Of a stretch of DNA of 64,000 bases, positions 3,197 to 31,674 are shown one piece after another (the first letter of the stretch is position 1; each line of letters starts with the position of its first letter). This DNA comes from Candidatus Brocadiia bacterium (GTDB lineage: Bacteria; Planctomycetota; Brocadiia; CAIUPP01), in NCBI GenBank assembly GCA_052139675.1, contig JBKQWE010000085.1, positions 1-64,000 on the forward strand, written 5' to 3'. Under the pieces are notes generated by a model. It was given only the letters and a program-made list of their open reading frames with translations. It had not been told where the DNA came from and made no database searches. Position numbers and translations under genes: made by a program.

Positions 3197-3294
3197 CCTC
3201 GTAATCGTAATCTTACTCGTAATCGTAATCGCCGTTTTGCGTCTCGACTAGAAGAAGTCCGGTTACGATTATGATTACGATTACGATTACGAAG
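3197..3294. repeat. Hexanucleotide-stem hairpin element, CGTAAT subfamily, copy A
   Basis: Left arm cctcgtaatcgtaatcttactcgtaatcgtaatcg, a loop of about 30 nt, and right arm ttacgattatgattacgattacgattacgaag. The arms are reverse complements built from CGTAAT/ATTACG hexamer units. Sits in the divergent gap between the epimerase and the spermidine-synthase-like gene. Confidence 0.8.
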
Positions 3295-3407
3295 CCGCGC
3301 TGTCAAGTTCCAGGCTCCCGATTTCGGCTTGCGGAACCGGCCGGGATATGTAGAATATCACCCGCGTGGCTCACGAGGGTATCGAACGGCCGGTCAACTG
3401 GGAAATC

Positions 3408-6212
3408 ATGGCCAACTCGGCGCCGCTCCAGAACGCTCCTCCGGGAACGAATCCTTCCTCGACGCGCCTGCTCCTCCTGCTGCCGCTGTTCATGGGCAGC
3501 GGGTGCGCGGCATTGGTGTACGAGATCGTGTGGCTTCAGTTGCTGCAACTCGTCATCGGCTCCACGGCGGTTTCGCTGGGAGTGCTGCTCGGCACGTTCA
3601 TGGGAGGCATGTGCCTGGGCAGCCTGCTCTTGCCGCGGCTGATCTCCCCGAAGCGCCATCCGCTGCGGGTCTACGCGGCTCTGGAACTGGGCATCGGCGT
3701 GATTGCGCTGGCGGTGCTGTACGGCATGCCGCACATCGAGACGCTCTATACCGGCGTCGCGGGCGGCGGGTGGATTGCGTCGCTGGCGCTGCGAGGGCTG
3801 ATGAGCGTGGTGTGCCTGCTGCCGCCGGCGATGCTGATGGGCGCGACGCTGCCGGCGCTCTCCCGCTGGGTGGAGACGACGCCGGAAGGCGTCTCGTGGC
3901 TGGGCTTCCTGTACGGAGCGAACATCGCGGGAGCGGTGGGCGGGTGTCTCCTGGCCGGGTTCTACCTGCTGCGCATCTCGGACATGGCCGCGACGACCTA
4001 TTTCGCGGTGGCCGTCAATCTGACCGTAGCGGCGATCAGCGTGGCGTTGTCGGCGGTGTGGCTTTATCGGCCGGTCGCCGTCGCCCCGGCGGCGGCGGAA
4101 TCCGGGGACGCAGCCGGCCCGTGGAGCGTGTATATCGTGATCGCCCTGTCCGGGCTGACGGCGCTGGGAGCGGAGGTGGTCTGGACGCGGTTGCTCTCGC
4201 TGCTGCTGGGAGGCACGGTTTACACGTTCTCGGCGATCCTGGCGCTGTTCCTGCTGGGCCTGGGGATCGGCAGCGTGGGCGGCTCCTTCCTGGCGCGGAG
4301 GGCGCACCCGCGGCTGGCGCTCGGATATGCCCAACTGTTCCTGGCGGGCGCGATCGCCTGGGCGGCCTGGGCCCTCACGGACTCGCTGCCGTTCTGGCCG
4401 ATCAACCCTTCGATTTCCGTCAGCCCATGGTTCACGTTTCAGTTGGACCTGCTTCGGTGCCTTTACGTGGTGCTGCCCGCGGCGATTTTCTGGGGAGCGA
4501 GTTTCCCGCTGGCCCTGGCGTCCGCCGCGCGCCCGGGGCAGGACCCGGGACGGCTGGTGGCGGGCGTCTATGCCGCGAACACCGTCGGCGCGATCGCGGG
4601 CGCGCTGGCCTTCAGCCTGCTGTTGATCCCCGTGATCGGCAGCCAATGGTCGCAGCGGATCATGCTCATGCTCGCCGGCCTGTCGGCGGTCGTGTGCCTG
4701 GCCCCGGAGGCCTGGCGGCGGCTGCGCGCGCGCGAGGGGATTCCGGCGGAGCGCGCCTCGGCGCTGCCGGCGATCATCGGCCTCGCGGCGGCCGTGGCGC
4801 TGATGCCGCTGCTGACCTGGCGCGTTTCGCCGATGCCGTGGCTGACCGCCGCCTTCGGCCGCTTCTCCGGCACCTACGTCCCGGAAGTTTATCCCGGCGT
4901 CCTCGATCTGAAGGAAATCGAGCTGCTCAATTTCGCCGAGGGCTGGCACGTGACTCTGCGAGCTTCTCCCGACGGCGCCATACGGTACGAGCCCCAGACC
5001 AGCGGCGAAGCCGGCCAGGCGCTGGTGTCGGCCTCCAAGACGGTCATGGACTCCTGGATCGCGGCCAATCGCGCGCAACTGCTCTCCGCGCTGCGCAAGG
5101 GGCAGGCTTTTGAGCGGCAGGAACCGTCTTCCGCCGCGTACGGCGGCGGCGCGGCGACCTGGCACTGCGCCCTTGTGCGCGAAGGCATGAACGTCACCGT
5201 CGCCGTCACGGAGGACAAGGAGAGTTATCGTTATTTCCACGGGGCCGGCAAGGTGCAGGCCTCCACGCACCCGCAGGACATGCGCCTGCAGCGCATGCTC
5301 GGACACCTGACGGTGCTGGCGCGCAGAGATCCCGATGCGGTGCGGTCGGTCCTCGTGGTCGCCTGCGGCGCGGGCGTGACCGCCGGTTCGTTCGTGCCCT
5401 ACGACACCGTCCAACGGATCGTCATCTGCGACATCGAGCCGATCGTGCCCAGGGACGTGGCGCCGATGTTCGCCAAGGAGAACTACAACGTGGTGACGGA
5501 CCCGCGCACCCGGGTGATCCTGGACGACGGGCGGCACTTCATCCGCACCACGAAGGAGAAGTTCGACGTCATCACGTCGGACCCGATTGACCCCTGGGTC
5601 AAGGGCTGCGCCGCGCTGAACACGCGCGAGTACTACCAGATGTGCAAGGACCACCTGAACCCGGGCGGGATCGTCGCGCTCTGGTTCCCGCTGTACGAGA
5701 GCGACCCGGCGACCGCCAAGAGCGGGATCGCGACCTTCTTCCAGGTGTTCCCGAACGGCATCATCTGGAGCAACGACTCTTCGGGCGAGGGATACGATAC
5801 GGTGCTCTTCGGGCAGGTGGACCCGGCCGAAAAGATTGACGTGGACCGCTTGCAGGACTGGCTGGAGCTGCATCCGAAGGTGCGGCAATCGCTCGAGGAC
5901 GTGAACTTCGGGCAGCGCCGCCCCGTCGGAGAAGCCCACGGCGAAAAGCCGGAGGTTTCCGTTGACCTGCTCTCGACCTACGCCGGGCAGGCCTCGGACC
6001 TGGCTGGGTGGCTCGTCGGCGCGCAGATCAACACCGACATGAACCTGCGGCTGCAATACCTGGCGGGGCTTACATTGAACCGCAACTCGAGCCAGGAACT
6101 GCTCGACGATATCCTTCTTTACTATAAGTTTCCGGACAACCTCTTCGGGGGCTCCGAAGAGCGCATGGCGGCCCTGAAGAAGACCCTGGCGGCGGCCTCG
6201 CGGAAGCCGTGA
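3408..6212 (+). CDS. Fused polytopic membrane domain + spermidine synthase-like (polyamine aminopropyltransferase fold) + C-terminal TPR-like region
   Basis: Multiple TM helices in the N-terminal 450 aa. Then a PABS/SpeE-like methyltransferase-fold block (VVACGAGVTAGSF...ICDIEP...LDDGRHF...FDVITSDPIDPW...LNPGGIVALW). Start could be ATG 3366 or 3408; both lie just after repeat A. Confidence 0.7.
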   Translation: MANSAPLQNAPPGTNPSSTRLLLLLPLFMGSGCAALVYEIVWLQLLQLVIGSTAVSLGVLLGTFMGGMCLGSLLLPRLISPKRHPLRVYAALELGIGVIALAVLYGMPHIETLYTGVAGGGWIASLALRGLMSVVCLLPPAMLMGATLPALSRWVETTPEGVSWLGFLYGANIAGAVGGCLLAGFYLLRISDMAATTYFAVAVNLTVAAISVALSAVWLYRPVAVAPAAAESGDAAGPWSVYIVIALSGLTALGAEVVWTRLLSLLLGGTVYTFSAILALFLLGLGIGSVGGSFLARRAHPRLALGYAQLFLAGAIAWAAWALTDSLPFWPINPSISVSPWFTFQLDLLRCLYVVLPAAIFWGASFPLALASAARPGQDPGRLVAGVYAANTVGAIAGALAFSLLLIPVIGSQWSQRIMLMLAGLSAVVCLAPEAWRRLRAREGIPAERASALPAIIGLAAAVALMPLLTWRVSPMPWLTAAFGRFSGTYVPEVYPGVLDLKEIELLNFAEGWHVTLRASPDGAIRYEPQTSGEAGQALVSASKTVMDSWIAANRAQLLSALRKGQAFERQEPSSAAYGGGAATWHCALVREGMNVTVAVTEDKESYRYFHGAGKVQASTHPQDMRLQRMLGHLTVLARRDPDAVRSVLVVACGAGVTAGSFVPYDTVQRIVICDIEPIVPRDVAPMFAKENYNVVTDPRTRVILDDGRHFIRTTKEKFDVITSDPIDPWVKGCAALNTREYYQMCKDHLNPGGIVALWFPLYESDPATAKSGIATFFQVFPNGIIWSNDSSGEGYDTVLFGQVDPAEKIDVDRLQDWLELHPKVRQSLEDVNFGQRRPVGEAHGEKPEVSVDLLSTYAGQASDLAGWLVGAQINTDMNLRLQYLAGLTLNRNSSQELLDDILLYYKFPDNLFGGSEERMAALKKTLAAASRKP

Positions 6213-6237
6213 GCCTGTCTCGGCGGCATCACTGGTG

Positions 6238-6373
6238 TTTCCTTGCGGAAACAGGCGTCCTATTTCCGCAAGGAAGCATGGCCGCACTAAGCCCTGTCAC
6301 GTTAGTGAGTTATGCGTTCCGTTGGACCGTGTTGAGTTGCGTAAATTTGCGCACCCAATTACGCAACTCAACA
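6238..6373. repeat. About 140-bp double-hairpin intergenic repeat (R2), copy 1
   Basis: Hairpin 1 is ttccttgcggaaaca-ggcgtcc-tatttccgcaaggaa. A conserved spacer gagttatgcgttccgttggaccgtgtt follows. Hairpin 2 is gagttgcgtaaatt-tgcgcaccc-aattacgcaactc. Lies between the stop codons of convergent genes (6212 and 6374). Near-identical copy at 14069-14205. Confidence 0.75.
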
Positions 6374-6892
6374 CTAGAGCTTCAGCGCGGGCAGGCCGGA
6401 CTGCACCCGGGTAAGCAGCGACACGAGCGCCTTGCGCTCGGAAACGGAAAGGCCGTGCATGAGCGCCGACACCCTGCCGGCGTGATCGGGCAGGAGTTTC
6501 TCGATGAGCCGCCGGCCGGCCGGGGTGAGCGCGATGGGCGTCACCCGGCGGTCGTCGCCGCTGGCCTCGCGCTTCACGTAGCCGTCGCGCTCAAGTCCGT
6601 CCACGAGGCCGGTGATGTTGCCCTTGGTCACCCCGTACAGTTCCGCCAGCTCCGAGTGGGAGAGCGCCCTGGGCAGATATTCCAGCAGCAGCCCCAGCAC
6701 GACGTATTTGCCCTGGCTGATCCCGTAGCGCGCCAGGTTGGTTCCGATGGCCGCCGAAACCTCGTCGGCGACGCCCAGCAGCACGTGGACCGCCCGGACC
6801 GCGGTGGGGTCCAGCGACGGAAAGCGCTCGGCGAAGCGCTTCAGCCGCTCGTATTTCGGGATGCGATGAACCACCCAGCGTTTCACGGCCAT
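6374..6892 (-). CDS. MarR family transcriptional regulator
   Basis: 172 aa with a winged-helix core (LSHSELAELYGVTKGNITGLVDGLERDGYVKREASGDDRRVTPIALTPAGRRL). Confidence 0.9.
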   Translation of the reverse strand: MAVKRWVVHRIPKYERLKRFAERFPSLDPTAVRAVHVLLGVADEVSAAIGTNLARYGISQGKYVVLGLLLEYLPRALSHSELAELYGVTKGNITGLVDGLERDGYVKREASGDDRRVTPIALTPAGRRLIEKLLPDHAGRVSALMHGLSVSERKALVSLLTRVQSGLPALKL

Positions 6893-6904
6893 CAGCCGCC
6901 CCTC

Positions 6905-6945
6905 GACTAAGCTGCGTATAGTATATCAGTCAATAGTATAGCTTC
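6905..6945 (-). promoter_or_regulatory. Candidate marR promoter/operator with direct repeats
   Basis: gtATAGTATAtcagtcaATAGTATAgc lies 20-50 bp upstream of the marR start. On the sense strand it reads TTGACT-N17-TTAGTC with ATACTAT repeats overlapping the -35. MarR proteins typically autoregulate through such sites. Confidence 0.35.
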
Positions 6946-7175
6946 CAAGAGCATTTCCCGGTTTTTCCTCCCGTCAGCTCACGCAGCGCGCTCGCCTCCC
7001 GAAGAACGACCCTCAGGCATTGACCTCCGGCTAGATACGATACGTACCTAGTGTGGTATCCCGGGAAGAAATTAACCACGCGCGGTCTGAACTTCTGCGT
7101 GGTACTTTTGGCCGCGATACCCGGTCACGGAAGGGGATTGGCGAGGTGGCCGGCGAGGTTCGTGCCGTCGCGCGC

Positions 7176-8201
7176 TCAGCGGAGAAGACGCTTCAGCGTG
7201 CGGAGCGTGAGGGCGATGTCGCGAGCCGAGATATCCAGATGCGTCACGGCGCGGGCGCGGTCGGGAGCGGTCAGCATGATCAGGATTCCCTTCGCCTTCA
7301 GCGCGGCCACGGTCTCCTGCGCTTTCTGCGGGCCGGCCCGGAATCGGAAATAGATGAGGTTCGTCGGGAACTTGCCCGGATCAATCTCGAGCGCCGGGAT
7401 TTCCGCCAGGCCCTCGGCGAGCCGGCGCGCGTTTGCGTGGTCCTCGACGACGCGCTCCACGTGATGTTCGAGCGCGTAGATGCCGGCCGCCGCGAGATAG
7501 CCGACCTGCCGCATGCCGCCGCCGAGCATCTTGCGGCACCGCCGCGCGCGCTCGATGAAATCCGCCGGGCCGGCGAGCATCGTCCCGACCGGGCAGCCGA
7601 GGCCCTTGGAGAGGCATTGCGAGACGGAGTCGCACAGCCGGCCGTACTCGCGCGGCGTGTGGCCCGTCACGGCGGCGGCGTTCACTAGGCGCGCGCCGTC
7701 CATGTGCAGCCGGAGCCCGCGCGCCTTCGTCAGCCGCCGAAGTTCGCTCACCCGCTGCAGCGGGTAGCAGGTGCCGCCGGCGCGGTTGTGAGTGTTCTCG
7801 ACGGTCACCAGCCGGCTCAACGGCTGATGGATGTTGAGCGGGCGGATGGCCGACTCCACCGCGGCGGCCGTCAGGATGCCGTCGGGCATGTCGAGGGTGC
7901 TGAACATCACCCCGCAGAGCGCCGCGCCCGCGCCGACCTCGTAGTTCACCGAGTGCGCGCCCCGGTCGAGAATCACCTCGTCGCCCGGCTGGGTCCAGCT
8001 CTTGATCGCGACCGTGTTGGCCATCGAGCCGCTCGGCATGAAGAGCGAGCGCTCCTGGCCGAGGAACTCCGCCGCCATTTCCTCGAGGCGGATCACGGTC
8101 GGGTCGTCGCCGAGGACATCGTCGCCGACCTTGGCGCGCATCATGGCGCGGAGCATGCCCTGCGTCGGCCGCGTTACCGTATCGCTGCGAAGATCAACCA
8201 T
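7176..8201 (-). CDS. ltaE: Low-specificity L-threonine aldolase
   Basis: N-terminal MVDLRSDTVTRPT matches the canonical threonine aldolase start. PLP fold-type I features (SGSMANTVAIK... HMDGARL). The ORF track extends to 8270 from a TTG, but the internal ATG (Met24 of the track ORF) is the likely start. Confidence 0.85.
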   Translation of the reverse strand: MVDLRSDTVTRPTQGMLRAMMRAKVGDDVLGDDPTVIRLEEMAAEFLGQERSLFMPSGSMANTVAIKSWTQPGDEVILDRGAHSVNYEVGAGAALCGVMFSTLDMPDGILTAAAVESAIRPLNIHQPLSRLVTVENTHNRAGGTCYPLQRVSELRRLTKARGLRLHMDGARLVNAAAVTGHTPREYGRLCDSVSQCLSKGLGCPVGTMLAGPADFIERARRCRKMLGGGMRQVGYLAAAGIYALEHHVERVVEDHANARRLAEGLAEIPALEIDPGKFPTNLIYFRFRAGPQKAQETVAALKAKGILIMLTAPDRARAVTHLDISARDIALTLRTLKRLLR

Positions 8202-8435
8202 TGGAATCTCCACTGCACGAGGGGAAAGCGTCGGATGTCGTATTGTGACGACTGGGGCCGCAGCCGTCAAGCGATTCCGCGGCGGGGCGGTCTTGACATT
8301 GCTCTCGATTTCGCCATAAGATGAAGGGCGAGGGTGGCCGGCAGGGAACTCCGGCCCGATGGCCGCGAACCTTCCGAGGGGACGGCGCGGCCGAGGCGAA
8401 CCAGCCTGACGACAATCCAGGGAAGGAGACTATCC

Positions 8436-9941
8436 ATGGGAGCTTGGAACAAGGCAGGCTCTGTCGGCATGGCCTTGGGCGTGGCGCTGTTCGTGGCGTT
8501 CGGCTTGATCGCGCTCGTCGCGGCGCGCCCAGGCGGAAGCGACCTGAAGGCTGGGCCGATAGATCCGGCTGTGGCGGCGCCGGCGGAGCAGTTGGGCAAG
8601 GCGTTCGCCATGGTGGCCGCGCACGTCCGGCCGGCGGTCGTCAGCGTGTTCTCCGAGAAAACGGTGAAGTTCCAGGCGCCCGACTTCGGGATGCCTTTCG
8701 GCAACGATTTCTTCCGGCAGTTCTTCGGCCGGCAGTTCCCGCAGAACCAGCCGCAGCCGATGCCGCGCGAGTACAGCGTGCCGCAGCAAGGGATGGGCTC
8801 GGGCATGATTATTGACAAGCAGGGGCACGTCCTGACGAACTACCACGTGGTGAGCGACGTGGACGAGATCAAGGTCCAACTGGCGGACAAGACCACCTTC
8901 GAGGCGGAGATCGTCAGCAGCGACCCTCAGACCGACGTGGCCGTGATTCGGATGAAAGGGAGCGTGCCGGACGATTTGCCGGCGGTGGAATTCGGCGATT
9001 CGGACGCCATGGAGGTGGGCGACCTGGTCATGGCGATCGGGGCGCCGTTCGGCTTCCAGCAGACGGTGACCACCGGCATCATCAGCGCCAAGGGGCGCTC
9101 GGGCGTCGGGATCAACACCTACGAGGACTTCCTCCAGACCGACGCGGCGATCAATCCGGGCAACTCCGGCGGGCCGCTGGTGAACATGCGGGGCCAGGTC
9201 ATCGGCATGAACAGCGCCATCGCCACCCATATCGGGCAGTTCGCCGGAGTCGGCTTCGCCATCCCGATCAACCTGATCAAGGGCGTCCTGCCGACGCTCG
9301 TGAAAGGCGGCAAGGTCACTCACGGCATGCTCGGCGTCAAGATCCAGGAGGTCACGCCCGAGCTGGCCAAACTGTTCGGCCTGACCGAAGCCAAGGGTGC
9401 GCTCGTGGCGCAGGTCGTCGCGGATTCGGCCGCCGACAAGGGCGGCATCAAGGCCGGCGACGTGATTGTGCGGTACGACGGCAAGGACGTGGAGAGTCCG
9501 GCGCACCTGCGCAACATGGTCGCCGCCACCGCGCCGGACACCGAGGTGAAGGTCGGCATCATCCGAGGAGGCAAGCAGGAGACGCTGACGCTGCGCGTCG
9601 GCACGCTGACTCCGCAGATGATGGCCGAGGCCGCGCCCTCCGAGGAAGGCGGCGTCCTGAGCAAGCTGGGGATGAGCGTCCAGACGCTGACTCCCGACCT
9701 GGCGAAGCAGTTCGGCATCCGCGCCGCTCAAGGCGCCGTCATCACCGACGTGGAGGAGGGCGGCGCCGCGTCGCTCGCGGGCCTGCAGGCGGGCGACCTG
9801 ATCGTCGAGGCCGACCGCCGGAAGGTGGCCAGCGCCGGCGACCTGCAGGAAGCGCTCGACAGCGCGAAGGACAAGGACACGGTGCTGCTGCTCGTCAAGC
9901 GGAAAAGCTCGAGCCTGTTTGTGGCGCTGAAGACGAAGTGA
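8436..9941 (+). CDS. degP: Do/DegP/HtrA periplasmic serine protease with two PDZ domains
   Basis: Signal anchor, then trypsin-like catalytic motifs (TNYHVV, DVAVIRM, GNSGGPLVN), then two PDZ-like segments. GGAAGGAG RBS 6 nt upstream of ATG 8436. Confidence 0.9.
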   Translation: MGAWNKAGSVGMALGVALFVAFGLIALVAARPGGSDLKAGPIDPAVAAPAEQLGKAFAMVAAHVRPAVVSVFSEKTVKFQAPDFGMPFGNDFFRQFFGRQFPQNQPQPMPREYSVPQQGMGSGMIIDKQGHVLTNYHVVSDVDEIKVQLADKTTFEAEIVSSDPQTDVAVIRMKGSVPDDLPAVEFGDSDAMEVGDLVMAIGAPFGFQQTVTTGIISAKGRSGVGINTYEDFLQTDAAINPGNSGGPLVNMRGQVIGMNSAIATHIGQFAGVGFAIPINLIKGVLPTLVKGGKVTHGMLGVKIQEVTPELAKLFGLTEAKGALVAQVVADSAADKGGIKAGDVIVRYDGKDVESPAHLRNMVAATAPDTEVKVGIIRGGKQETLTLRVGTLTPQMMAEAAPSEEGGVLSKLGMSVQTLTPDLAKQFGIRAAQGAVITDVEEGGAASLAGLQAGDLIVEADRRKVASAGDLQEALDSAKDKDTVLLLVKRKSSSLFVALKTK

Positions 9942-9989
9942 CCGTGCGCCGGCCGAATGACGAGCCGGCGCGAGAAAGGAGAACGGACC

Positions 9990-10253: not shown

Positions 10254-10254
10254 C

Positions 10255-11980: not shown

Positions 11981-12033
11981 GGCTTCCTCCTCTTCTTGAA
12001 CCATTTCACCCATCTCCGACGCGATCGCCGCTC

Positions 12034-13509
12034 CTACTTCGCGGGCGCGTCCTCCATCGCCGCCTCGTCATCGAACCCGGGCACCTTGTAGTTCTTCAGG
12101 CCGCCCAATCGTTTCCACTCGCGGTACATCAGCAACAGGAAGACCAGCGCGGCGCAAAGAAACGGCAGCCGCCAGGCCGGGATCATGCGATAGCAGTAGT
12201 CGGTGCCCCACTTGTCGTCGGGGAACGCCCGGCGCATCACCGTCATGTAAAGGCCCGCCGCCAGGGTAGCCAGGATGCCGCAGGCCGCCTGGACGATGGC
12301 GTTGAACGAACAGAACTGCCCGTACCGGCTCTTGGGCCAGACCAGCATCTGCATCGGCTGCCGCGTGGTATCGTACAATAGTCCCAGCGGCAGTTCCACT
12401 GCGGCCAGCGCAATCAGGATGTGGAACGCGGTCCGCGGCTGGAACTTTCCGAACAGCCAGATGAAATTGAGCGGCACGATCGCCACCAGCCCGATCTTGA
12501 TCCAGACCATGACCCGCATCGGGTGAAAGCGGTCCGCCAGCATTCCCGCCGGGTAGCTCAGGACCATCTGCACGCCGCTCACCGCGGCGGCGATGAGGCC
12601 GATCTGCTCCAGGGTCAGCCCCAGCGAAAGGCTCAGGAACACCGTATAGGTCCCGCATGCCGAAGATACGGACCAGAAAATGTTATGCACGAACATGTAA
12701 ATGTACAGCCGGTGGCTGAGGCACTCTTTCGCGTAGATCCTCAGCTTCGTCCAGAAACCCTCGCCCATCGCCGGAGCGGGCGGGTATTTTCCCTCTTTGA
12801 TCCCCAGGCACATCGTCAGGAAGCCGACGAAATAGACCAGCGCGGCGCACAGGAAAATCAACTTACTGTGCGTCAGCGCGTGCTGGTAGATGAGGCCGTT
12901 CCACAGCATGGCCGCCAGGCTGCTGACGAGCCGGAAGAGGCCGAAAAAGCGCGACATGAACAGGCCGGGCACGACGTCGTTGAAAAAGTAATAATACACG
13001 GTGGTGGCGAACATATTGAGGACCGTGAACATAATCCATAACACCGCCATGGCCAGGATCGCCACCGCGCCGGCGCTCCACCCGGTCATCGGGCCGATGC
13101 GGCCGTGCAGCCACACGCCGATTTCCGTTGAGAACGCCAGCAGCACGAGCGCGCCGCAGATGAACGGGGCAGAGAACAGCATGAATGGAATCCGCCGCCC
13201 GAACCGCCCGCGATAGCGGTCGCTGGCGGTCGAGATCACCGGGTTGAGCATCGTATTGATGATGTTGGGGATCGTCGCCGTGACGACGGGCAGGAGAAAA
13301 TCGGAGATGCCGAGTTGCTTGAGCCGCAGCGGCACGATGCTCGGGGCCACCGACTCCATGAGCTGGAAAACGAAGTCGCCCCACAGCAGCATTAAGAACA
13401 CCCACGCCAGCCCCGCCTTCGTGTACTGCAGCGTGCCCACGCGGAAACGCGCGTTGGTGTCCACGATGGGCGGCATCTCGGGACTGCTCAAGGTCGCGGG
13501 CTCCGTCAT
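12034..13509 (-). CDS. MFS-type transporter (sugar:cation symporter-like)
   Basis: 491 aa with about 12 TM segments throughout. GGAGA RBS. The conserved leader motif (next feature) lies immediately upstream. Confidence 0.65.
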   Translation of the reverse strand: MTEPATLSSPEMPPIVDTNARFRVGTLQYTKAGLAWVFLMLLWGDFVFQLMESVAPSIVPLRLKQLGISDFLLPVVTATIPNIINTMLNPVISTASDRYRGRFGRRIPFMLFSAPFICGALVLLAFSTEIGVWLHGRIGPMTGWSAGAVAILAMAVLWIMFTVLNMFATTVYYYFFNDVVPGLFMSRFFGLFRLVSSLAAMLWNGLIYQHALTHSKLIFLCAALVYFVGFLTMCLGIKEGKYPPAPAMGEGFWTKLRIYAKECLSHRLYIYMFVHNIFWSVSSACGTYTVFLSLSLGLTLEQIGLIAAAVSGVQMVLSYPAGMLADRFHPMRVMVWIKIGLVAIVPLNFIWLFGKFQPRTAFHILIALAAVELPLGLLYDTTRQPMQMLVWPKSRYGQFCSFNAIVQAACGILATLAAGLYMTVMRRAFPDDKWGTDYCYRMIPAWRLPFLCAALVFLLLMYREWKRLGGLKNYKVPGFDDEAAMEDAPAK

Positions 13510-13640: not shown

Positions 13641-13712
13641 GACTGGGACCGGCTCGGCCGTTACAATTGCGGCGTTTGATGCCGGAGCCTGGCGCGTAAC
13701 GCGGCGACTGGA

Positions 13713-14066: not shown

Positions 14067-14068
14067 TG

Positions 14069-14205
14069 CTTCCTTGCGGAAATAGGCGTACTATTTCCGC
14101 AAGGAAGCATGACCGCAATAAGCCGAGTCATTATGTCGAGTTATGCGTTCCGTTGGACCGTGTTTTGTTGCGTAAATTGGTACGCCAATTTACGCAACTA
14201 AACAC
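14069..14205. repeat. About 140-bp double-hairpin intergenic repeat (R2), copy 2
   Basis: Hairpin 1 has a 15-bp perfect stem ttccttgcggaaata/tatttccgcaaggaa. Hairpin 2 has a 14-bp stem gttgcgtaaattgg/ccaatttacgcaac. Lies between convergent gene stops (14066 and 14252). Confidence 0.75.
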
Positions 14206-15200: not shown

Positions 15201-15274
15201 CCTCGTAATCGTAATCGCCGGTTTCCGTATCAACACGACAGCGGCCGAGTACGATTACGATTACGATTACGAGG
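15201..15274. repeat. Hexanucleotide-stem hairpin element, CGTAAT subfamily, copy B
   Basis: Left arm cctcgtaatcgtaatcg, a roughly 34-nt loop, right arm cgattacgattacgattacgagg. The loop shares ggccgagtacgatta with copy C. Sits between convergent genes. Confidence 0.8.
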
Positions 15275-17649: not shown

Positions 17650-17746
17650 CCTCGTAATCGTAATCTTACTCGTAATCGTAATCGCCGTTTTCGATCTCAA
17701 CAAGGCGAAGGCCGAGTACGATTAGGATTACGATTACGATTACGAA
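17650..17746. repeat. Hexanucleotide-stem hairpin element, CGTAAT subfamily, copy C
   Basis: The left arm is identical to copy A (cctcgtaatcgtaatcttactcgtaatcgtaatcgccgtttt). Right arm acgattaggattacgattacgattacgaa. Lies inside a co-directional operon, between the isomerase stop and the GH94-like start. Confidence 0.8.
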
Positions 17747-22148: not shown

Positions 22149-22267
22149 GAATGCACCTGCCCCTGAAAGCCTCCTCGACGGCCTGCCGGAAATGTACCAC
22201 TCCCGGCTGACAGCCGCAAGGAAAATGCAGCGGCGGCGGCGAACCCGGCTCGACTCGACGCGGGGCG

Positions 22268-24511: not shown

Positions 24512-25260
24512 GGGCCGCCTTTCATAAAAGCCGGAGCGGTGCTGGTGAAGGACCGGAACTCCGGCTGTCATTGTAGCGGCAAGACGAGCGCGCGGCAAAT
24601 GCAAGAATGGAGCGTATGGCTTAGGGTGTTATATTATAACATGCGTTACTGTAACTAGTTACGACATATATGATGCAAGTTGCGTTGCCAGAGTCAGTTA
24701 TGACGCGCTGGGTTCGTTTTTTCAACTCGTCCCGTAAGCGGTATCATCCGTTCCCCCAGCATCTTGGGACTTTTCACGCATCAACGCCAGAACGAAAGGT
24801 CTCTCGCCAAGACGCGAAGAGCGCCAAGAATAAAAATCAGGTTCTCTTTCGTTCTTCGCGCTCTTGGCGGCTTGGCGAGAGAATTCTTCTTCCTGCGAGC
24901 ATCATATTATAACACCGGATCTTCGGCCGAGAGCGGGCGACCGAAGTCAGTGCGCTTGCCAGTGGTTTCAGTGCGCTTGGGAGCGGGTTGAGTGCGCTTC
25001 AGTGCGCTTCGCAGTGGTTTGGGTGCGCTTTTTTCGGCGAGTTGGATTTGACGCACGTAGGCCTCCGCTCAAGAACGCATCGTTGCAAAACGGCCGCATT
25101 ACACGTATCATAGATAATCTGCGCGCAGGTCATCGCCCATCGCTGACGCAGGCCCCTTGCGTCCGCAGCCCGCCACACGGAGGGCGGGCAAGCCCGCCAT
25201 GCGAACGGCGGGCAAGCCCGCCCATGGCGCGTTGTTTTTTCAGGCCGGTGATCCGGAACT

Positions 25261-27069
25261 ATGATATCGAACGCCTCGCACATCAGGAATATCTGCATCA
25301 TCGCCCACGTGGACCATGGGAAATCCACGCTGGCCGACCGGCTCATTCAGCAGTGCAACCTGGTGACCGATCGCGAGTTCCGCGATCAGATCCTCGACAC
25401 CATGGACATCGAGCGGGAGCGCGGGATCACGATCAAGAGCAACAGCGTCACGCTGCCTTACAAGGCGCTCGACGGCAAGGACTACCTGATCAACCTGATT
25501 GATACGCCCGGCCATGCGGATTTCTCGTACGAGGTGTCGCGCGTGCTGGCCTCGTGCGAGGGCGCGCTGCTGCTGGTGGACGCCGGGCAGGGCGTGCAGG
25601 CGCAGACCGTGGCGCACCTCTTCAAGGCCGTGGAGCACAACCTGGAGATCATCCCGGTCATCAACAAGATTGACCTGGCGACGGCCGATATCGAGGGGAC
25701 GAAGGAGCAGATCGAGGAAGAACTCGCGCTTCCCACGGACGATGCCATCCTGTGCTCGGCCAAGACCGGCAAGGGCGTCGAGCAGATCCTCGAGGCGGTC
25801 ATCCAGCGCATTCCGCCGCCCGCCGGCGATCCGGAGGCGCCGCTCAAGGCGCTGGTCTTCGACGCGATTTACACTCCCTTCCGCGGCGTCGTCGTCGGCT
25901 TCCGCATCATGGAAGGCACCATCCGCCCGGGCGACGTCATTCGCTTCATGTCGAACAACGTCGTCTATACGGTGATGGAAGTGGGGTGGTCCCAGATCAA
26001 GCAGGTCCCGCGCGAGTCCATGAGCGTCGGCGAGGTCGGCTACGTGGTGGCCGGCATCCGGACGCTGGCGGACGTGCGGATCGGCGATACGATGACGCAC
26101 GACCAGAACCCGACCGCGCAAAGCCTGCCCGGTTTCGAGCCGGTCAAGCCGATGGTCTTCTCCTCGATCTACCCGATGTCCGCGAGCGACTACGACGCGC
26201 TGGCGGTGGCGATCGAGCGCTACGGGCTCAACGACGCGTCGCTGGTCTATCAGAAGGACTCGTCGGTCGGCCTCGGCCTGGGCTTCCGCTGCGGGTTCCT
26301 CGGCGCGCTGCACCTCGACGTGGTGCAGCAGCGCATCGAGGAGGAGCACGGCATCTCGCTCGTCCTGACCGCGCCGAGCGTGGTGTATCGTGTCCTGCTG
26401 TCGAACGGCGACGTGGTCGAGGTGGACAACCCTTCGTACTATCCCGACCCGGCCAGGATCGAGAGCGTGGAAGAGCCGTTCGTCCGGGCGTCCATCATCA
26501 CGCCGGAGCAGTCCATCGGGCCGGTGATGACGCTGTGCATGAGCGCCCGCGCGACGAACCCGCGCACGCACTACATCGGCCGCCATCGGCTCCAGGTCGA
26601 AGTGGACTTGCCGCTGGCGGAGGTGATCTACCACTTCTACGAGAACCTCAAGCAGATCACGCAGGGATACGGATCGCTCGATTACACCATGCTGGACTAC
26701 CGGCCCTCGGAGATCGTCAAGCTGGACATCCTCGTCAACGGCGAACGGCTCGACGCGCTCTCGCAGCTCACCCACGAATCCAAGGCGCGGTCCACCGCGA
26801 TGTACGCCTGCGAGCGGCTCGAGGAGACCATCCCGCGGCAGAATTTCAAGATCGCTCTCCAGGGCGCGATCGGCGGCACGATCATCGCGCGCCGGACGAT
26901 CAACGCCCTGCGCAAGGACGTGACCGCCAAGTGCTACGGCGGCGACGTCTCGCGCAAGCGCAAGCTCCTGGAAAAACAGAAGGCCGGCAAGAAACGCATG
27001 AAGATGGTCGGCCAGGTCTCCGTGCCGCAGGAGGCGTTCGTCGCCGTGCTCAAGGCGCCGGGGGACTGA
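25261..27069 (+). CDS. lepA: Elongation factor 4 (LepA)
   Basis: IRNICIIAHVDHGKSTLADRL G-domain motifs with full-length LepA architecture, 602 aa. Confidence 0.95.
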   Translation: MISNASHIRNICIIAHVDHGKSTLADRLIQQCNLVTDREFRDQILDTMDIERERGITIKSNSVTLPYKALDGKDYLINLIDTPGHADFSYEVSRVLASCEGALLLVDAGQGVQAQTVAHLFKAVEHNLEIIPVINKIDLATADIEGTKEQIEEELALPTDDAILCSAKTGKGVEQILEAVIQRIPPPAGDPEAPLKALVFDAIYTPFRGVVVGFRIMEGTIRPGDVIRFMSNNVVYTVMEVGWSQIKQVPRESMSVGEVGYVVAGIRTLADVRIGDTMTHDQNPTAQSLPGFEPVKPMVFSSIYPMSASDYDALAVAIERYGLNDASLVYQKDSSVGLGLGFRCGFLGALHLDVVQQRIEEEHGISLVLTAPSVVYRVLLSNGDVVEVDNPSYYPDPARIESVEEPFVRASIITPEQSIGPVMTLCMSARATNPRTHYIGRHRLQVEVDLPLAEVIYHFYENLKQITQGYGSLDYTMLDYRPSEIVKLDILVNGERLDALSQLTHESKARSTAMYACERLEETIPRQNFKIALQGAIGGTIIARRTINALRKDVTAKCYGGDVSRKRKLLEKQKAGKKRMKMVGQVSVPQEAFVAVLKAPGD

Positions 27070-27090
27070 GGGCGTGCGAATAAGGAACCA

Positions 27091-27175
27091 ATCGTCCTCG
27101 TCCTCGACGTTCTCGTCCTCGTCCTCGAATGGGCGTTCCATACGGCCGAGGACGAGGACGACGACGAGGACGATT
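27091..27175. repeat. Hexanucleotide-stem hairpin element, CGTCCT subfamily, copy D
   Basis: Left arm atcgtcctcgtcctcgacgttctcgtcctcgtcctcga, a loop of about 18 nt, right arm cgaggacgaggacgacgacgaggacgatt. Sits in the 137-bp gap between lepA and hemW. Confidence 0.8.
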
Positions 27176-27206
27176 CACGCAGTACGGTCTTCGCAATCGT
27201 AAAGTT

Positions 27207-28391
27207 ATGAATCAGAATCCAGTCATCCCATCCGACGACACCGCGCAGGGCCTCTACGTCCACATTCCCTTCTGCCGAAGCAAATGCCGATACTGCGATT
27301 TCTGCTCGCGGCCGCCCGCCGACGGCGAGATGGATCGCTTCGTGCGTGCGCTGGAGATGGAAATCCGGCTGCGCGCCTGCGACCGGCCCGCGCGCACGCT
27401 CTACGTCGGCGGCGGCACGCCGTCCTTTCTCGGAATCGCCCGGCTGCGCGCCATCCTGGAGGGACTCCGGCGCGCTTGCCGGCTTCAGACCGATTGCGAA
27501 ATCACCGTGGAGGCCAATCCCTGCGACCTCGCCGGCGACTGGCTGGCGGCCTGCCGCGCGGCGGGCGTCAACCGCCTCAGCGTCGGCGTTCAGGGAATGC
27601 GCGACGAGGACCTGCGGTTCCTCGGACGCGCCCACTCCGTCGCCGACGCCGTCGGGGCGGTGCGGCGCGCGCGAGCCGCCGGGTTCGACAACCTGGGGAT
27701 TGACCTCATCGTCGGACTGCCCGGACATACCGCAGGCCTCACGCGGGAGATCCTGACCGAGGCGGTCGCGGCCTTCGCGCCGGAGCATCTTTCCTGCTAC
27801 CAACTGACCTGCGCGCCCGGCACGCCGCTGCACGATGCCGTCGTCCGCGGAGAGGTCCGCATGCCGGACGCCGACACGGAAGCGGCCATCTTCATGACCA
27901 TGCATGAAACGTGCGAAGGGCTCGGTTACGAGGGCTACGAGGTCAGCAACTTCGCGCGGGCGAAAGCCTTTCGCTCGCGGCACAATAGCGCCTACTGGAC
28001 GCACCGCGACTATCTCGGCTTCGGCCCGTCGGCCCACAGCTTCCGGAACCCGGTGCGCTCCTGGAACATGGCCTCGCTGGCCGAATACTGCGGATCGCTG
28101 GAGCGCGGCGACTTGCCCGAGGCGGGGCGCGAGCAACTGACCGACGCGCAGCGCGCGGCCGAGATCATCCTGCTCGGCCTGCGCACGCGCGACGGCTTCT
28201 CCCTGGACGAACTGCGCAAGACCACCGGCGTGGACCTGCCGGCCGAAAAGGGACAGGTCCTGTCCCGCGCCGAATCGGACGGCCTCCTTCACCGCAACGC
28301 GAGCCGTATCCAGCCGACCCGCAAAGGCCTGGCCGTAGCCGACCAGCTAGCCGTCTCCCTCGCGCCGGAGGCGCTGCCGGACTGCTCGTAG
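27207..28391 (+). CDS. hemW: Radical SAM heme chaperone HemW (HemN-like, oxygen-independent coproporphyrinogen oxidase family)
   Basis: GLYVHIPFCRSKCRYCDF radical-SAM CxxxCxxC motif. The lepA-hemW synteny is widely conserved. Confidence 0.85.
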   Translation: MNQNPVIPSDDTAQGLYVHIPFCRSKCRYCDFCSRPPADGEMDRFVRALEMEIRLRACDRPARTLYVGGGTPSFLGIARLRAILEGLRRACRLQTDCEITVEANPCDLAGDWLAACRAAGVNRLSVGVQGMRDEDLRFLGRAHSVADAVGAVRRARAAGFDNLGIDLIVGLPGHTAGLTREILTEAVAAFAPEHLSCYQLTCAPGTPLHDAVVRGEVRMPDADTEAAIFMTMHETCEGLGYEGYEVSNFARAKAFRSRHNSAYWTHRDYLGFGPSAHSFRNPVRSWNMASLAEYCGSLERGDLPEAGREQLTDAQRAAEIILLGLRTRDGFSLDELRKTTGVDLPAEKGQVLSRAESDGLLHRNASRIQPTRKGLAVADQLAVSLAPEALPDCS

Positions 28392-28456
28392 TGTGCCCGT
28401 CAGGGCACACGAAGTAGCGCCTGACGGCGCCACTACAAGCGACCAGGCGACGCGCG

Positions 28457-30091
28457 CTACTTCTCTACGCGGTAGATATGCACCGCGAGTCTGCCGAAGT
28501 CGTCGCTCAACTTGCCTTGCTCGGCGACGAGGGTCCGATCCTCGTCCACGACCTCGATCTTTGTGCCGGGCTTCAGGGTGTCCAGCAGAATCGTCCCTTT
28601 GCCTGACTTGCCGTGGGCGTCTATGTTCTGCGCGAAGATCACTAATCCGCTCTCGGCCTGCTTCGCCAGGCACTGGGCGGGCAGGCCGCCTTCGATCTCG
28701 ATCTTGGGCTGGACCTCCGCGTCCGGCGCGCAGAGGACGGGCGTCAGGCGCGTGATCTGCTCGTTGATCTCCTTCATCGCCTTCTGGTTCTCCTCGGACG
28801 GGCCGAACTCTGCGAAGGTCGGCTTGAACCGGTGCGTGAAGTAGCCGATGGCCGTCGCGCCCTTGATGATCGCCTGCCAGACCTCGTTGCGGATCTCCAC
28901 GCCGGTGACGGGCGCGGCGTTCTCATGGCTGCCCGTCAGGCATTCGATCCACTGATAGACCGGCTTGTCCTTGCCGGCGTACGCGCGCAGGTCGTCCATG
29001 CCCTGCGAGACGCGCCCGATCTTCACCGGCTGGTTCCAGCCGTAGATGGGGTAATCGTCGAAGCCGACCACGTCCGCCGCCTTGAGCATCTCCGGGTAGA
29101 GCTTGTCCTGCTGCGCGCGGTTCCACCAGTGGTCGAGGGCCGTGTCGTGGATGAAGAAGTCGCTGACGGTCATGACCATCGGCCGCGACGGGTCGAAGAG
29201 CTTCAGGGCCTTGTACTTGGTCATCAGGGCCTCGGCGCTCTCGCGCGACTCTTTGCGCGGCTCGGAGAGCAGGAGGTTCCGGCCTTCCTTATCGAAGGCC
29301 TGGACCTCGGCGATGGCGCCCCACACGTTCGCTTCCGGATAGGCCGAGAGCACTTTGACGGTGATCTCCTGGAAGGTGACGGGTTCCGGCAGGTCGAACT
29401 TCTGGAGCTGCGGCTTCTTCTCGAGCGTGACCTTGAGGATTTCCCTGCCGCCGGCCTCGAAGGCGACCTCCTTCGCGACGGCCTCCTTGGGGTTCGTGGT
29501 GCTTTGCACGGCGACGGCCACCGCGGTGACGGGGGCCTTGAGCTTGATGGTGAAGCTGGCGCCGGCCATGGGATCGAGTACGGCCGAGGTATCGGGCTTG
29601 CCGTCCACCATCAGGTAGAGCGGCCGCGACTTGTTCACAACGACGCCCTTGCCGGGAATGACTTGAGCATTGCTGCGGGTGGCCGGCATGTCCGGCTCGT
29701 CGTTCTGCATCCACGCGAGGAGAGCCGGCGAAGATTTGAGTTTCTTCATCTCGTCGGGGTACGCGGGGTCGAAGGCAGGAAGGAAATAGAGGCCCGCCTG
29801 GAACGCCTGCTCGGCGTACTGGTCAGCGGTCTTGCCCTTCGCCTCGGCGGGGTCCGCCGGCCGCCAGTAACCGGCGATGCAGTTGATCCCGACGGCCTTC
29901 AGCTTGGGCAGATTCGGGGCATCCTGAAGCCAGCCCATGATCGGGAAGAAGGGCTTGCCGTTCACGAGAAACTCGCGGTTCGCGCCGACGGCGACCGTTC
30001 GGATGGGCGCGATCGCCTCCTGCGCCAAAGCGGCCGCGCAGGTCCCCAGGATCAGCGCCGCCGCCAGCGACAAAGTCACCAGGTGCCTCAT
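28457..30091 (-). CDS. Secreted putative glycoside hydrolase (clan GH-A-like)
   Basis: Signal peptide MRHLVTLSLAAALILGTCAAALA. A WMQNDEPD NEP-type motif is typical of GH-A acid/base regions. Confidence 0.45.
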   Translation of the reverse strand: MRHLVTLSLAAALILGTCAAALAQEAIAPIRTVAVGANREFLVNGKPFFPIMGWLQDAPNLPKLKAVGINCIAGYWRPADPAEAKGKTADQYAEQAFQAGLYFLPAFDPAYPDEMKKLKSSPALLAWMQNDEPDMPATRSNAQVIPGKGVVVNKSRPLYLMVDGKPDTSAVLDPMAGASFTIKLKAPVTAVAVAVQSTTNPKEAVAKEVAFEAGGREILKVTLEKKPQLQKFDLPEPVTFQEITVKVLSAYPEANVWGAIAEVQAFDKEGRNLLLSEPRKESRESAEALMTKYKALKLFDPSRPMVMTVSDFFIHDTALDHWWNRAQQDKLYPEMLKAADVVGFDDYPIYGWNQPVKIGRVSQGMDDLRAYAGKDKPVYQWIECLTGSHENAAPVTGVEIRNEVWQAIIKGATAIGYFTHRFKPTFAEFGPSEENQKAMKEINEQITRLTPVLCAPDAEVQPKIEIEGGLPAQCLAKQAESGLVIFAQNIDAHGKSGKGTILLDTLKPGTKIEVVDEDRTLVAEQGKLSDDFGRLAVHIYRVEK

Positions 30092-30135
30092 GGATCGTTC
30101 TCCTTTTCTATAGATCGAGGTGATTCCGCCTTCCG

Positions 30136-31473
30136 TCAGCTTGCCCAATACGGCCCCAGAACTCCCTGCTCCTCTTCTTCCTTCCACATCGCGTCAAAGA
30201 GCGCGCCGGCGGTCGCGAGCGAACGCGTGAAAGGGTGGACGCACAGCGCCTCGAAGAGCATCCGGCGGTCCTTCTGGAGGACGCCCGCCACGACCATCTT
30301 CTGCACCTCGGCCAGGTGGCTTTGCTGGACGAAGACCGGCGGCGTGAACGCCGGGACGGGCAGCGGCTCGAAGCCCTTTTTGGTGACCTTGCAGTAGATC
30401 TCCAGCACCGTATCCGGGCTGAAGCCCGGCACCGCGCCGCCGTGCGGGATGTTCACGGGAAACAGCTCGCCGCTGCCGGTGGCCAGCGCCTCCGCGACGC
30501 CGATGGCCAGGTCGGCATGTCCGCCGAAGTGCGTCCGCGCGATCTGGCCGGCCTCCTGCTCGTTCCAGCGGGTCAGGATGGCTTTCAACTGGGCCCACTT
30601 CTTGACGTCGCCTTCCTTTCGCCGTGCAGGGCCTTCTTCCGGGTGCTGCCGCTGCTCCTCGACCGCCTCGTTGTAATAGAAGTACGGCTCGGTATGGCCG
30701 GCCGGCGCGGGATACTGGCCCATCGTCCGGAAGATCTGCAGCCATCGCTTGACGCGCGCCTGGCCTTCGGGCTTGAGCGAGGCGAGGTTGGCCTCGACCG
30801 CCTTGGAATCCAGCCGGCGCAGCTCCTCCAGCAGATCGCGCCCGTCGGATTTCGCCTCGTAAACCCACGAGCAGTGATTGATGCCGGCGTGCCGCGTGGC
30901 GATCCGCTCGAAGTCCACGCCGACCGTGACGCCGATGTCGCGCGGCGGGCAGATGAACCCGTCGCACAGGGCAACCCATCGCCTGTGGCCGTCGCGTTGA
31001 AGGGCATCGCCGATGAAGTTGGTGGGATTGGCATAGTTGAGCAGCCAGGCCTGCGGGCAGAGGCGCTTCATTCTGCGCGCCACGTCGAGCACCACCGGTA
31101 TGGTTCGCATGGCCATGAACATTCCCCCGGGGCCGACGGTCTCGTTGCCGAAGTAGCCGAAGCGCGGCGGGATGATCTCGTCGAGCGTCAGGCTCTTGAT
31201 GCCGCCGACGCGGAATGTCGCGATGACGAAATCGGCGCCCTCGAGCGCGCGGTCGAGGTCGGGCGCGGCGATGAAGGTCATGGCCGCGTCGCGCGAGCGG
31301 ACGAAGCGCTCGCAGAACGCCTTCACCGTCGCCACCCGGTCGGCGTCGAGGTCGTGCAGCCGGACCTCCGCGCCGGCGAAGACCTTGCCCTTCTTGCACA
31401 TGGTCCCGACGAAGCTCGGCGTGAAGTAGCTGCCGCCGCCCAGCACGGTCAGTATTAACGGTTTCTTTGCCAT
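30136..31473 (-). CDS. Glycoside hydrolase family 4 (NAD/Mn-dependent glycosidase)
   Basis: N-terminal Rossmann LILTVLGGGSYFTP and GH4-type NYANPTN and CDGF motifs. Confidence 0.75.
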   Translation of the reverse strand: MAKKPLILTVLGGGSYFTPSFVGTMCKKGKVFAGAEVRLHDLDADRVATVKAFCERFVRSRDAAMTFIAAPDLDRALEGADFVIATFRVGGIKSLTLDEIIPPRFGYFGNETVGPGGMFMAMRTIPVVLDVARRMKRLCPQAWLLNYANPTNFIGDALQRDGHRRWVALCDGFICPPRDIGVTVGVDFERIATRHAGINHCSWVYEAKSDGRDLLEELRRLDSKAVEANLASLKPEGQARVKRWLQIFRTMGQYPAPAGHTEPYFYYNEAVEEQRQHPEEGPARRKEGDVKKWAQLKAILTRWNEQEAGQIARTHFGGHADLAIGVAEALATGSGELFPVNIPHGGAVPGFSPDTVLEIYCKVTKKGFEPLPVPAFTPPVFVQQSHLAEVQKMVVAGVLQKDRRMLFEALCVHPFTRSLATAGALFDAMWKEEEEQGVLGPYWAS

Positions 31474-31588
31474 GGACTTATTCTCTCCCAAAGAGTCAAG
31501 ACGGTGAGTCGCCCGCCGTCACATTGTGACGGCGGAGGTCGGCCGCGTCAAGCGGGTCGACACTGTCCTGTCGGTCGCGCGCATCAAT

Positions 31589-31674
31589 ATCGTCCTCGTC
31601 CTCGTCCGCGTCCTCGAACAGCAGTTCTGAGCGGACGACCGAGGACGAGGACGACGACGAGGACGAGGACGATT
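31589..31674. repeat. Hexanucleotide-stem hairpin element, CGTCCT subfamily, copy E
   Basis: Left arm atcgtcctcgtcctcgtccgcgtcctcgaa, loop cagcagttctgagcggacgac, right arm cgaggacgaggacgacgacgaggacgaggacgatt. Sits in the divergent promoter region between GH4 and the Gly-rich protein gene. Confidence 0.8.

Follow-up and report, generated by a model that had tools for sequence, protein, structure and literature searches.

Repeat-armed hairpins in a Candidatus Brocadiia contig are probable members of a large superfamily of dispersed palindromic DNA repeats

Introduction

Palindromic repeats have been described in several bacterial groups. Correia elements are bounded by defined terminal inverted repeats, show a TA target duplication and carry an IHF site. 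Rickettsia palindromic elements (RPE), a subject treated by Ogata et al. in 2000, are reportedly ~100-bp palindromes that lie in frame within conserved genes, where the resulting peptide loop is tolerated. Imperfect inverted repeats can also be perfected by quasipalindrome template-switch mutagenesis, a process studied by Ripley and by the Lovett laboratory. RAYT genes are usually single-copy. Tagged repetitive extragenic palindromes (REP), finally, carry an unpaired GTAG or CGTC tetranucleotide and have stems of 5-13 bp (PMC3733652, PMC3116915). Here, we analyse five hairpins, copies A to E, in a 64,000-nucleotide stretch of a Candidatus Brocadiia bacterium (assembly GCA_052139675.1, contig JBKQWE010000085.1, positions 1 to 64,000; hereafter the window).

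An earlier note, made from the letters of the window alone, had singled out these hairpins as intergenic elements with tandem hexanucleotide arms, falling into a CGTAAT and a CGTCCT subfamily. All five are present, at the coordinates detailed below, and their arrays lie far above chance expectation. Copies A to E are, in our view, probably members of a large superfamily of dispersed palindromic DNA repeats that resemble REP and RPE in behaviour. No prior description of the family was found in Rfam or in the openly readable literature (PMC and bioRxiv, with subscription-only papers outside the scope).

Results

The hairpins follow the general form 5'-(TCGTNN)n-loop-(NNACGA)n-3', extend over 75-100 nt and have a variable centre of 15-40 nt. 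By inverted-repeat search, the arms of copies A to E measure 17-38 nt, are 77-100% complementary and stand 18-40 nt apart. Three copies are of the CGTAAT type. Copy A (3197-3294) consists of a left arm at 3199-3231 (TCGTAATCGTAATCTTACTCGTAATCGTAATCG), a loop at 3232-3259 and a right arm at 3260-3292; copy B (15201-15274) is a short version, in which a perfect 17-bp outer stem (15201-15217 / 15258-15274) encloses a 40-nt interior homologous to the loops of copies A and C; and copy C (17650-17746) has its arms at 17652-17689 and 17708-17745. The remaining two are of the CGTCCT type, namely copy D (27090-27175; arms 27090-27127 and 27144-27175, the left one of which contains the irregular segment CGACGTTC) and copy E (31589-31674; arms 31589-31616 and 31646-31673). 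Folded as RNA, the five reach -32 to -59 kcal/mol with z-scores of -4.6 to -7.8 on both strands, and DNA parameters give z-scores of -4.5 to -7.2. Within the window, CGTAATCGTAAT is matched 14 times when at most one mismatch is allowed (expected 0.05), CGTCCTCGTCCTCG is matched 13 times (expected 0.12), and the combined hairpin pattern is matched 4 times (expected 0). Each TCGTNNTCGT array in the 64 kb is followed by a NNACGANNACGA array within 70 nt, and the opposite order occurs in 0 cases. The 6-mers are contiguous within two facing arrays and without spacers, unlike the regularly spaced repeats of a CRISPR array.

The copies are related beyond their repeat unit. As the earlier note had claimed, the left sides of copies A and C are identical over 42 nt (3197-3238 and 17650-17691), the irregular CTTACT unit included, and copies B and C have the loop segment ggccgagtacgatta in common. 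The loops of A, B and C are of the same length and recognisably homologous, and the right arm of copy E is identical to that of the copy D orthologue in one relative (L119). Among eight distinct paralogs of one sub-subfamily, identity amounts to 87% in the right arm (first 28 nt), 48% in the loop core and a random 27-30% in the flanks. Judged by sequence, this contrast between arm, loop and flank is the mark of a dispersed repeat with discrete ends. The right arm exists in two variants, each in many copies: the perfect complement GAGTAAGATT and the mismatched GATTAGGATT, which opposite CTTACT (TAGGAT pairing) forms one G.T and one C.T. The same fixed asymmetric pair recurs at unrelated loci, and therefore whole elements have been copied rather than regrown at each site. 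Neither a target-site duplication nor a target motif was detected in 86 copies, where degenerate outer units muddied the calling of boundaries. Structure internal to the loop is weak (median z -0.23); the 17 of 80 loops that fall below -1.64 do so mostly via conserved CCGTT..AACGG closing pairs.

The architecture extends far beyond the window. A self-complementary pattern, TCGTMMTCGTMMTCG-N18-48-CGAKKACGAKKACGA, scanned over one genome per species, matched at least 118 species-representative genome loci. Going by record labels, some of which are probably binning errors, the matches listed comprise 80 from PVC bacteria (Planctomycetota, Verrucomicrobiota, Lentisphaerota, Kiritimatiellia), 31 from other phyla (Desulfobacterota, Myxococcota, Hydrogenedentes, Sumerlaeia, Armatimonadota and others) and 7 unlabelled; with phyla outside PVC represented, the label 'lineage-specific', attached earlier to one candidate role, is wrong. 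The unit census among the matches listed (TCGTCC 205, TCGTAC 173, TCGTAA 89) is biased, because the scan pattern required the variable positions in two neighbouring units to be A or C. In this census the right arms mirror the left ones, and single hairpins mix CGTCCT, CGTACT, CGTAAT, CGTCGT, CGTGCT and CGTTCT units. For these two reasons the CGTAAT and CGTCCT subfamilies are, at the level of sequence, two forms of a single rule, (TCGTNN)n - loop - (NNACGA)n, which bears out the earlier suspicion of a single element type. The inner ends of the arms most often read TCGA...TCGA, and within the CGTAAT subfamily conservation moves to TAATC, where CTTAAT and CCTAAT are among the units.

A 17-mer across the irregular CTTACT unit occurs in at least 120 metagenome contigs, the majority of them of peat or bog origin, and the near relatives of the window are peat-bog Planctomycetota metagenome-assembled genomes (MAGs) that bear the NCBI label 'Candidatus Brocadiia bacterium'. 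Hairpin density is ~1 per 13 kb, both in the window (5 per 64 kb) and in 75.7 kb of relatives that were picked via their proteins and not via hairpins (6 copies). Only 2 of 193 copies look intragenic. A phage-borne element was considered and rejected, as a scan without the A/C restriction returned only 15 matches among 2.9 million viral contigs.

Several hairpins are embedded in further repeated sequence. Many of the TCGTAC- and TCGTCC-type hairpins (L007, L048, L050, L070, L104) carry an extra arm module, CTCAGCGAAGCGGTAC on the left and GTACCGCTKCGCTGAG on the right, whose variants co-vary (e.g., AATGAAATGG) and which is sometimes present on one arm only. In about ten metagenome copies (L140, L154, L200, L203, L217, L236, L244 and others), a CGTAAT hairpin lies within a larger conserved structure, in which an outer stem, GGTTTCATAAC / GTTATGAAACC, surrounds the hexamer hairpin and a small GC hairpin (CTCCGCG..CGCGGG). 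This larger structure could represent nested palindromes or a composite element.

Orthologous sites were compared in relatives reached via HemW (90, 85, 83, 70 and 63% identity) and GH94 (88 and 77%). Copy D is present in all four loci at 83-90% HemW identity, which derive from three relatives (L119-L122). Between these orthologues the hairpin is 88-92% identical, compared with 78-86% at four-fold sites of lepA and 29-74% in the flanking spacer, and the arms differ by indels of 6 or 12 nt. A copy can stay at its site long past the randomisation of the adjacent spacer. The irregular CGACGTTC is kept in the D orthologues, and the paralogs E, L121:263 and L126:13036 are irregular in other ways; that locus-specific irregularities are kept in this manner therefore indicates constraint at the D locus and not homogenisation among copies. 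At the D site of the 70% relative (L124, 9690-9790) there is an inverted pair of GTAG-tagged REP-like palindromes, GTAGGGGCGAGCGGCGCTCGCCC and GTAGGGGCGTGCGGCGCACGCCC, and in the 63% relative there is a 25-nt spacer with no hairpin. Since a REP doublet occupies the lepA-hemW site of L124, GTAG REPs, as recognised by their tag, and hexamer hairpins coexist in the clade.

At the B and C sites of the 88% relative L126, the coding ends align with those of the window and the hairpins do not: both sites hold members of a sister family with ~8-nt arm units (GGTCTCTCGCCAAGACGCAAAGAGCGCCAAGA...), at 9807-9888 and 12348-12443, respectively. The octamer hairpin at the C site is nested within an outer (CACCAAGA)n / (TCTTGGTG)n hairpin. 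A sister hairpin with ~8-nt units (GGTCTCTCGCCAAGACGCGAAGAGCGCCAAGA and its complement), which does not follow TCGTNN, is also found in the window itself, at 24785-24897 (DNA fold z -5.8). Three further comparisons paired a filled with an empty site (L126:489-582 with L122, L126:13036-13113 with the window, and L121:263-341 with L122). None of these three pairs displays a target duplication, and the empty L122 site whose L126 counterpart is filled keeps a minimal TTCGTC-GG-GACGAT palindrome. Of the sites compared, three (B, C and D) keep some hairpin and three are polymorphic. The comparison of relatives that the earlier note had proposed thus revealed filled and empty sites, but neither a target duplication nor a clean insertion junction.

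Hairpins of this kind can also reside within a conserved gene. In two Verrucomicrobiota loci, a TCGTCC-type hairpin is located inside rlmN (L004 808-871, L080 3189-3264) and is read in frame as ...SSSSS-NPTEEPI-TRTRTTTRT.... Alignment with the solved RlmN 6fz6_A (E = 2e-81) places an insertion of ~20 residues exactly at the hairpin. The best 120 RlmN homologues, from Limisphaerales, have an insertion of 16-29 residues at the same surface loop in 120/120 cases, from different palindromic families and with apparent intermediates between the peptide types; the proteins with the insertion come from dozens of samples. DNA of three other rlmN types (L263-L265) reveals hairpin arms made of the 7-nt repeats GTCGAGA, CACAGTC and GTGACGA (z -5.5 to -6.1). 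Since 6- and 7-nt hairpins are found at one rlmN site, a repeat-armed hairpin has persisted there while its unit changed.

What do these hairpins mean for reading frames? The proposal that a 6-nt unit serves to keep the elements in frame is weakened by the 7- and 8-nt units of sister hairpins at the same sites, and codon frame was rejected as the cause of the 6-nt period, given that periods of 6, 7 and 8 nt occur, some of them at the same sites. We also rejected a small-peptide reading (frame GTN-NTC, Val-hydrophobic ... GAN-NAC, acidic): in-frame stops are present in A, C and E, start codons are missing, and both strands look alike. The hairpins do mislead callers of open reading frames (ORFs), which report false RNRN, DEDE and SSSS..TRTR peptides. 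The GH94 call that runs through copy C comprises 799 aa instead of 767 aa, with homologues of 764-769 aa, so that the excess of 32 codons suspected in the earlier note was correctly recognised.

Gene contexts of the five copies, assigned from Pfam domains and third-codon-position GC (GC3), uphold the earlier description. Copy A occupies the divergent gap between an epimerase gene (minus strand, ending 3154) and the gene of a 948-aa spermine-synthase-domain protein (plus strand, from 3366). Copy B is at a convergent junction between a 141-aa ORF (plus strand, ending 15192) and GH94 (minus strand, ending 15304), and copy C separates two co-directional minus-strand genes, a sugar isomerase-like gene (stop 17762) and GH94 (start 17607). 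Copy D lies between the co-directional plus-strand genes lepA (stop 27069) and hemW (start 27207). Copy E is in a divergent gap, upstream of both a GH4 gene (minus strand) and the gene of a secreted Gly-rich protein (plus strand). Copies B, C and D begin 9-22 nt past the stop codon of the upstream gene.

For a broader view, contexts were counted in loci with a GC content of 56% or more, on the basis of GC3-derived gene calls, and all gaps of 60 nt or longer in these loci served as background. Hairpins were co-directional in 34, divergent in 21 and convergent in 9 cases (background 152/76/66), which puts divergent gaps at 33% versus 26% and convergent gaps at 14% versus 22%. No terminator-like context bias emerged from these counts (chi-square by hand ~3.2, 2 degrees of freedom, not significant). 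In co-directional gaps, the median distance is 33 nt to the upstream stop versus 48.5 nt to the next start, and 21/34 hairpins are nearer the stop. A strand bias was likewise not seen among the 34 co-directional cases, the sense strand being more stable in 17 and the antisense strand in 16. In copies C and D, and in 5/5 of the rlmN hairpins, the antisense strand is more stable than the mRNA strand, which is opposite to the expectation if selection acted on the RNA of the transcribed strand. Among 695 ORFs, none of the neighbouring protein families shows enrichment. Pairs of hairpins enclose genes for GrpE, an Mrp/NUBPL ATPase, an oxidoreductase and URO-D-type methyltransferases; as for a RAYT gene flanked by hairpins, the 695 ORFs include no recurrent neighbour, and the genes between hairpin pairs are housekeeping genes, as judged within the loci.

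Is there any sign that the hairpins terminate transcription? None of the five copies was reported by a terminator scan, their loops span 18-40 nt as against the 3-8 nt of such terminators, and A and E lie in divergent gaps, all in keeping with the earlier statement that they are not canonical intrinsic terminators. The accompanying claim that no copy precedes a U-tract needs one correction, for the minus strand of copy B, which is followed by GGUUUUGAAAC, a weak 4-U run. A canonical U-tract terminator is located at 32792-32820; it is the only convincing one in the 20 kb scanned, where the number of terminator-like sites equals the shuffled expectation. Copy E lies between predicted sigma-70 promoters, a 12/12 match on the plus strand (31726-31753) and a 9/12 match on the minus strand (31551-31523). 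Because it is upstream of both divergent promoter-like sites, it is probably not transcribed from either. Rfam gave no match at gathering thresholds in the whole window, and no hairpin match at E<=5 in 1-33000.

The window contains some other features of note. The 12/12 promoter (TTGACA-16-TATAAT) opens a segment, 31726-32826, in which it is followed by the secreted-protein gene and then by the terminator at 32792-32820; this gene has an atypically low GC3, and its product a Gly/Phe-rich C-terminal half (GGFGNQFGNRFGGGFGRGFHNG...). Positions 6236-6375 and 14067-14205 are two copies of a dispersed, intergenic and non-periodic double-hairpin repeat, 89% identical over ~150 nt, composed of TGCTTCCTTGCGGAAATAG..CTATTTCCGCAAGGAAGCA and then GTGTTTTGTTGCGTAAATTGG..CCAATTTACGCAACTAAACAC. 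Four near-tandem copies of AGTGCGCTT(G/C) are found at 24948-25015, immediately after the octamer hairpin and ahead of lepA, and the minus strand of 25181-25247 has a weak, sub-threshold Rfam match to the P37 small RNA (E 0.028, 31 bits versus a gathering score of 50).

Discussion

The hairpins are dispersed in high copy number, have discrete ends and conserved arms, vary by whole-unit indels, persist at some sites and are present or absent at others, and display no specificity for genes or strands. Together with the copying of whole elements among unrelated loci, these properties lead us to favour a superfamily of dispersed palindromic DNA repeats. Among the roles offered in the earlier note, a miniature dispersed or mobile palindromic element fits best, and an RNA-specific role is unsupported by the tests of strand asymmetry and gene context. 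The pattern of dispersed copies suggests mobility.

How might such a family be maintained? We envision a scenario whereby maintenance takes place at the DNA level and hairpin- or cruciform-prone DNA is copied by a structure-specific mechanism. Selection for pairing, correction of one arm against the other by template switching, or a combination of the two might keep the arms symmetric, and unit slippage would supply variation in length. The effect on the host would conceivably be generic rather than tied to particular genes: a strong stem-loop in any transcript crossing the element from either side, and a tendency towards cruciforms in the DNA that separates transcription units. Several observations weigh against such a family of DNA repeats. 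A clean insertion junction or target-site duplication was not seen, and the 4-10 kb around each copy yielded no mobilising gene, be it a transposase, a RAYT or one of another type. The strong conservation of copy D and the presence of some hairpin at the B, C and D sites fit a selected host function at least equally well. The usual bias of REPs towards the 3' ends of genes is absent here, the census is coloured by the A or C forced at variable positions, and the gene calls behind the context counts are heuristic (ORF length and GC3).

The main competing explanation holds that selection keeps a long hairpin at certain intergenic sites, irrespective of its family, for its action in RNA: as a factor-dependent or bidirectional terminator, as a barrier to 3' exonucleases, or as an RNase III site between cistrons. 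Consistently, the stems (25-45 bp) form highly stable RNA structures, copies B, C and D start shortly past a stop codon, D is constrained between lepA and hemW, some hairpin, if not always of the same family, is found at the B, C and D sites in relatives, and co-directional hairpins are slightly nearer the upstream stop. Canonical U-tract terminators are moreover scarce, which renders another 3'-end signal plausible. Yet divergent gaps contain more of the hairpins, and convergent gaps fewer, than the background, and copy E is upstream of both of its divergent promoters. The transcribed strand enjoys no G.U-type advantage (17 versus 16) and is the less stable one in C, D and five rlmN hairpins; there is neither a U-tract nor an Rfam family; and among paralogs it is the sequence of the arms, not their pairing alone, that is conserved. 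On this evidence we consider selection for generic RNA hairpins unlikely. An account with no copying and no function, in which the hairpins are by-products of mutation that grew in place by slippage and quasipalindrome template switching, fares worse and is quite improbable. It would accommodate the whole-unit indels between orthologous copies, the 6- and 7-nt arms with apparent intermediates at one rlmN site, the minimal palindrome in the 'empty' site of L122 where L126 has a full hairpin, and the change of period across families (6, 7 and 8 nt). Local growth cannot, however, yield identical 42-nt sides with the same irregular unit at unrelated loci, as in A and C, nor can it produce one and the same asymmetric pairing of the arms in numerous copies from different genomes. 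The homology of paralog loops (48% versus 27-30% in flanks) and a copy D more conserved than four-fold degenerate sites also speak against it.

Alternatively, the arms may be arrays of binding sites for a protein that reads TCGT/ACGA at each 6-nt step, in duplex DNA or in single-stranded RNA (in the latter case modelled on ring-shaped RNA binders like TRAP or HutP), and that thereby provides a global regulatory or nucleoid-organising signal. The invariant 4-nt core with two variable positions across phyla, the fixed polarity with the TCGTNN array always before the NNACGA array, and the recurrent inner boundary TCGA...TCGA would all suit such a reader. Arm spacing and unit number nevertheless vary freely, conservation in the CGTAAT subfamily moves to TAATC, other unit families replace hexamer arrays at the same sites, and neither a common set of neighbouring genes nor a candidate protein was identified, so that we judge binding arrays to be highly improbable. 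An assembly or chimeric artefact at low-complexity repeats, finally, would be conceivable for a window that, like most of the related loci, stems from MAGs or metagenome contigs, several matches being at contig ends. It is effectively refuted by the occurrence of the same architecture in an isolate (L007, strain JC640), a complete chromosome (L009, CP050848.1) and long-read MAG chromosomes (L082, L107), by the reproduction of copy D in four independent assemblies with the same locus-specific irregularities, and by the in-frame rlmN copy in proteins from dozens of samples.

The superfamily of DNA repeats that we favour admits a more far-reaching extension, which at present appears doubtful: PVC-type bacteria may carry self-maintaining, repeat-armed DNA palindromes that hold fixed sites, even a loop of the essential rlmN gene, over long evolutionary spans while their unit is replaced, with 6-, 7- and 8-nt families at the same site. 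If true, this would imply either a dedicated structure-specific machinery for copying or repair, or a generic DNA-level function unlike that of REPs, such as the buffering of supercoiling or the insulation of adjacent transcription units by cruciforms.

At ~1 per 13 kb, a PVC genome would contain several hundred hairpins, as extrapolated from ~140 kb. Their practical consequences include false or extended ORFs, such as GH94 with its 32 extra codons, assemblies that can break at contig ends, and peptide loops that can be added to real proteins such as RlmN. The hairpins also provide a tractable case for the birth, copying and symmetry upkeep of palindromic repeats without an evident RAYT-type transposase, and for intergenic sites that always bear a hairpin while its family turns over, a behaviour that bears on the boundaries of transcription units where canonical terminators look rare.

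How does the family relate to described repeats? Like the REP, BIME and REPIN sequences of E. coli and Pseudomonas, the hexamer hairpins are high-copy, mostly intergenic, imperfect palindromes without coding capacity that are dispersed near unrelated genes; they form long hairpins, may be nested or clustered, persist for long and lack target-site duplications. Unlike REPs, they have no GTAG or CGTC tag, and their ends, ..(C)TCGT.. / ..ACGA(G).., are paired. Their arms are tandem 6-nt units of 17-38 nt around a centre of 15-40 nt rather than small palindromes, a bias to 3' ends is missing, no RAYT was found in the loci around them, and the same sequence rule holds across phyla. We do not place the family in REP because it has neither the tag nor the short stem, nor the 3'-end bias. 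The CGTC-tagged REPs in particular were rejected as a match, since they have 8-9 bp stems and 4-5 nt loops (PMC3733652). The hairpin in rlmN behaves as RPE do, in that it sits in frame within a conserved gene whose protein stays intact; this is a similarity of behaviour and not homology, as RPE differ in sequence and taxa, their arms are not tandem arrays of short units, and the present elements are mostly intergenic.

Correia elements (NEMIS) of Neisseria and other elements akin to miniature inverted-repeat transposable elements are similar in being small and non-coding, with inverted ends and a variable interior, and in occurring in transcripts and promoters and forming long RNA hairpins; in contrast to these, the hexamer hairpins reveal no target duplication or target motif. 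The cyanobacterial STRR heptamer repeats and the mycobacterial MIRU share intergenic arrays of short units whose copy number slips, but those are direct tandem arrays, whereas here two complementary arrays face each other and are inherited as a hairpin. Quasipalindrome template switching would offer a selection-free way to keep the arms complementary and may act on these hairpins, although it is a mutational mechanism and not a family of elements. The hairpin family thus stands as a variant of the palindromic-repeat kind, and not as a member of any named family.

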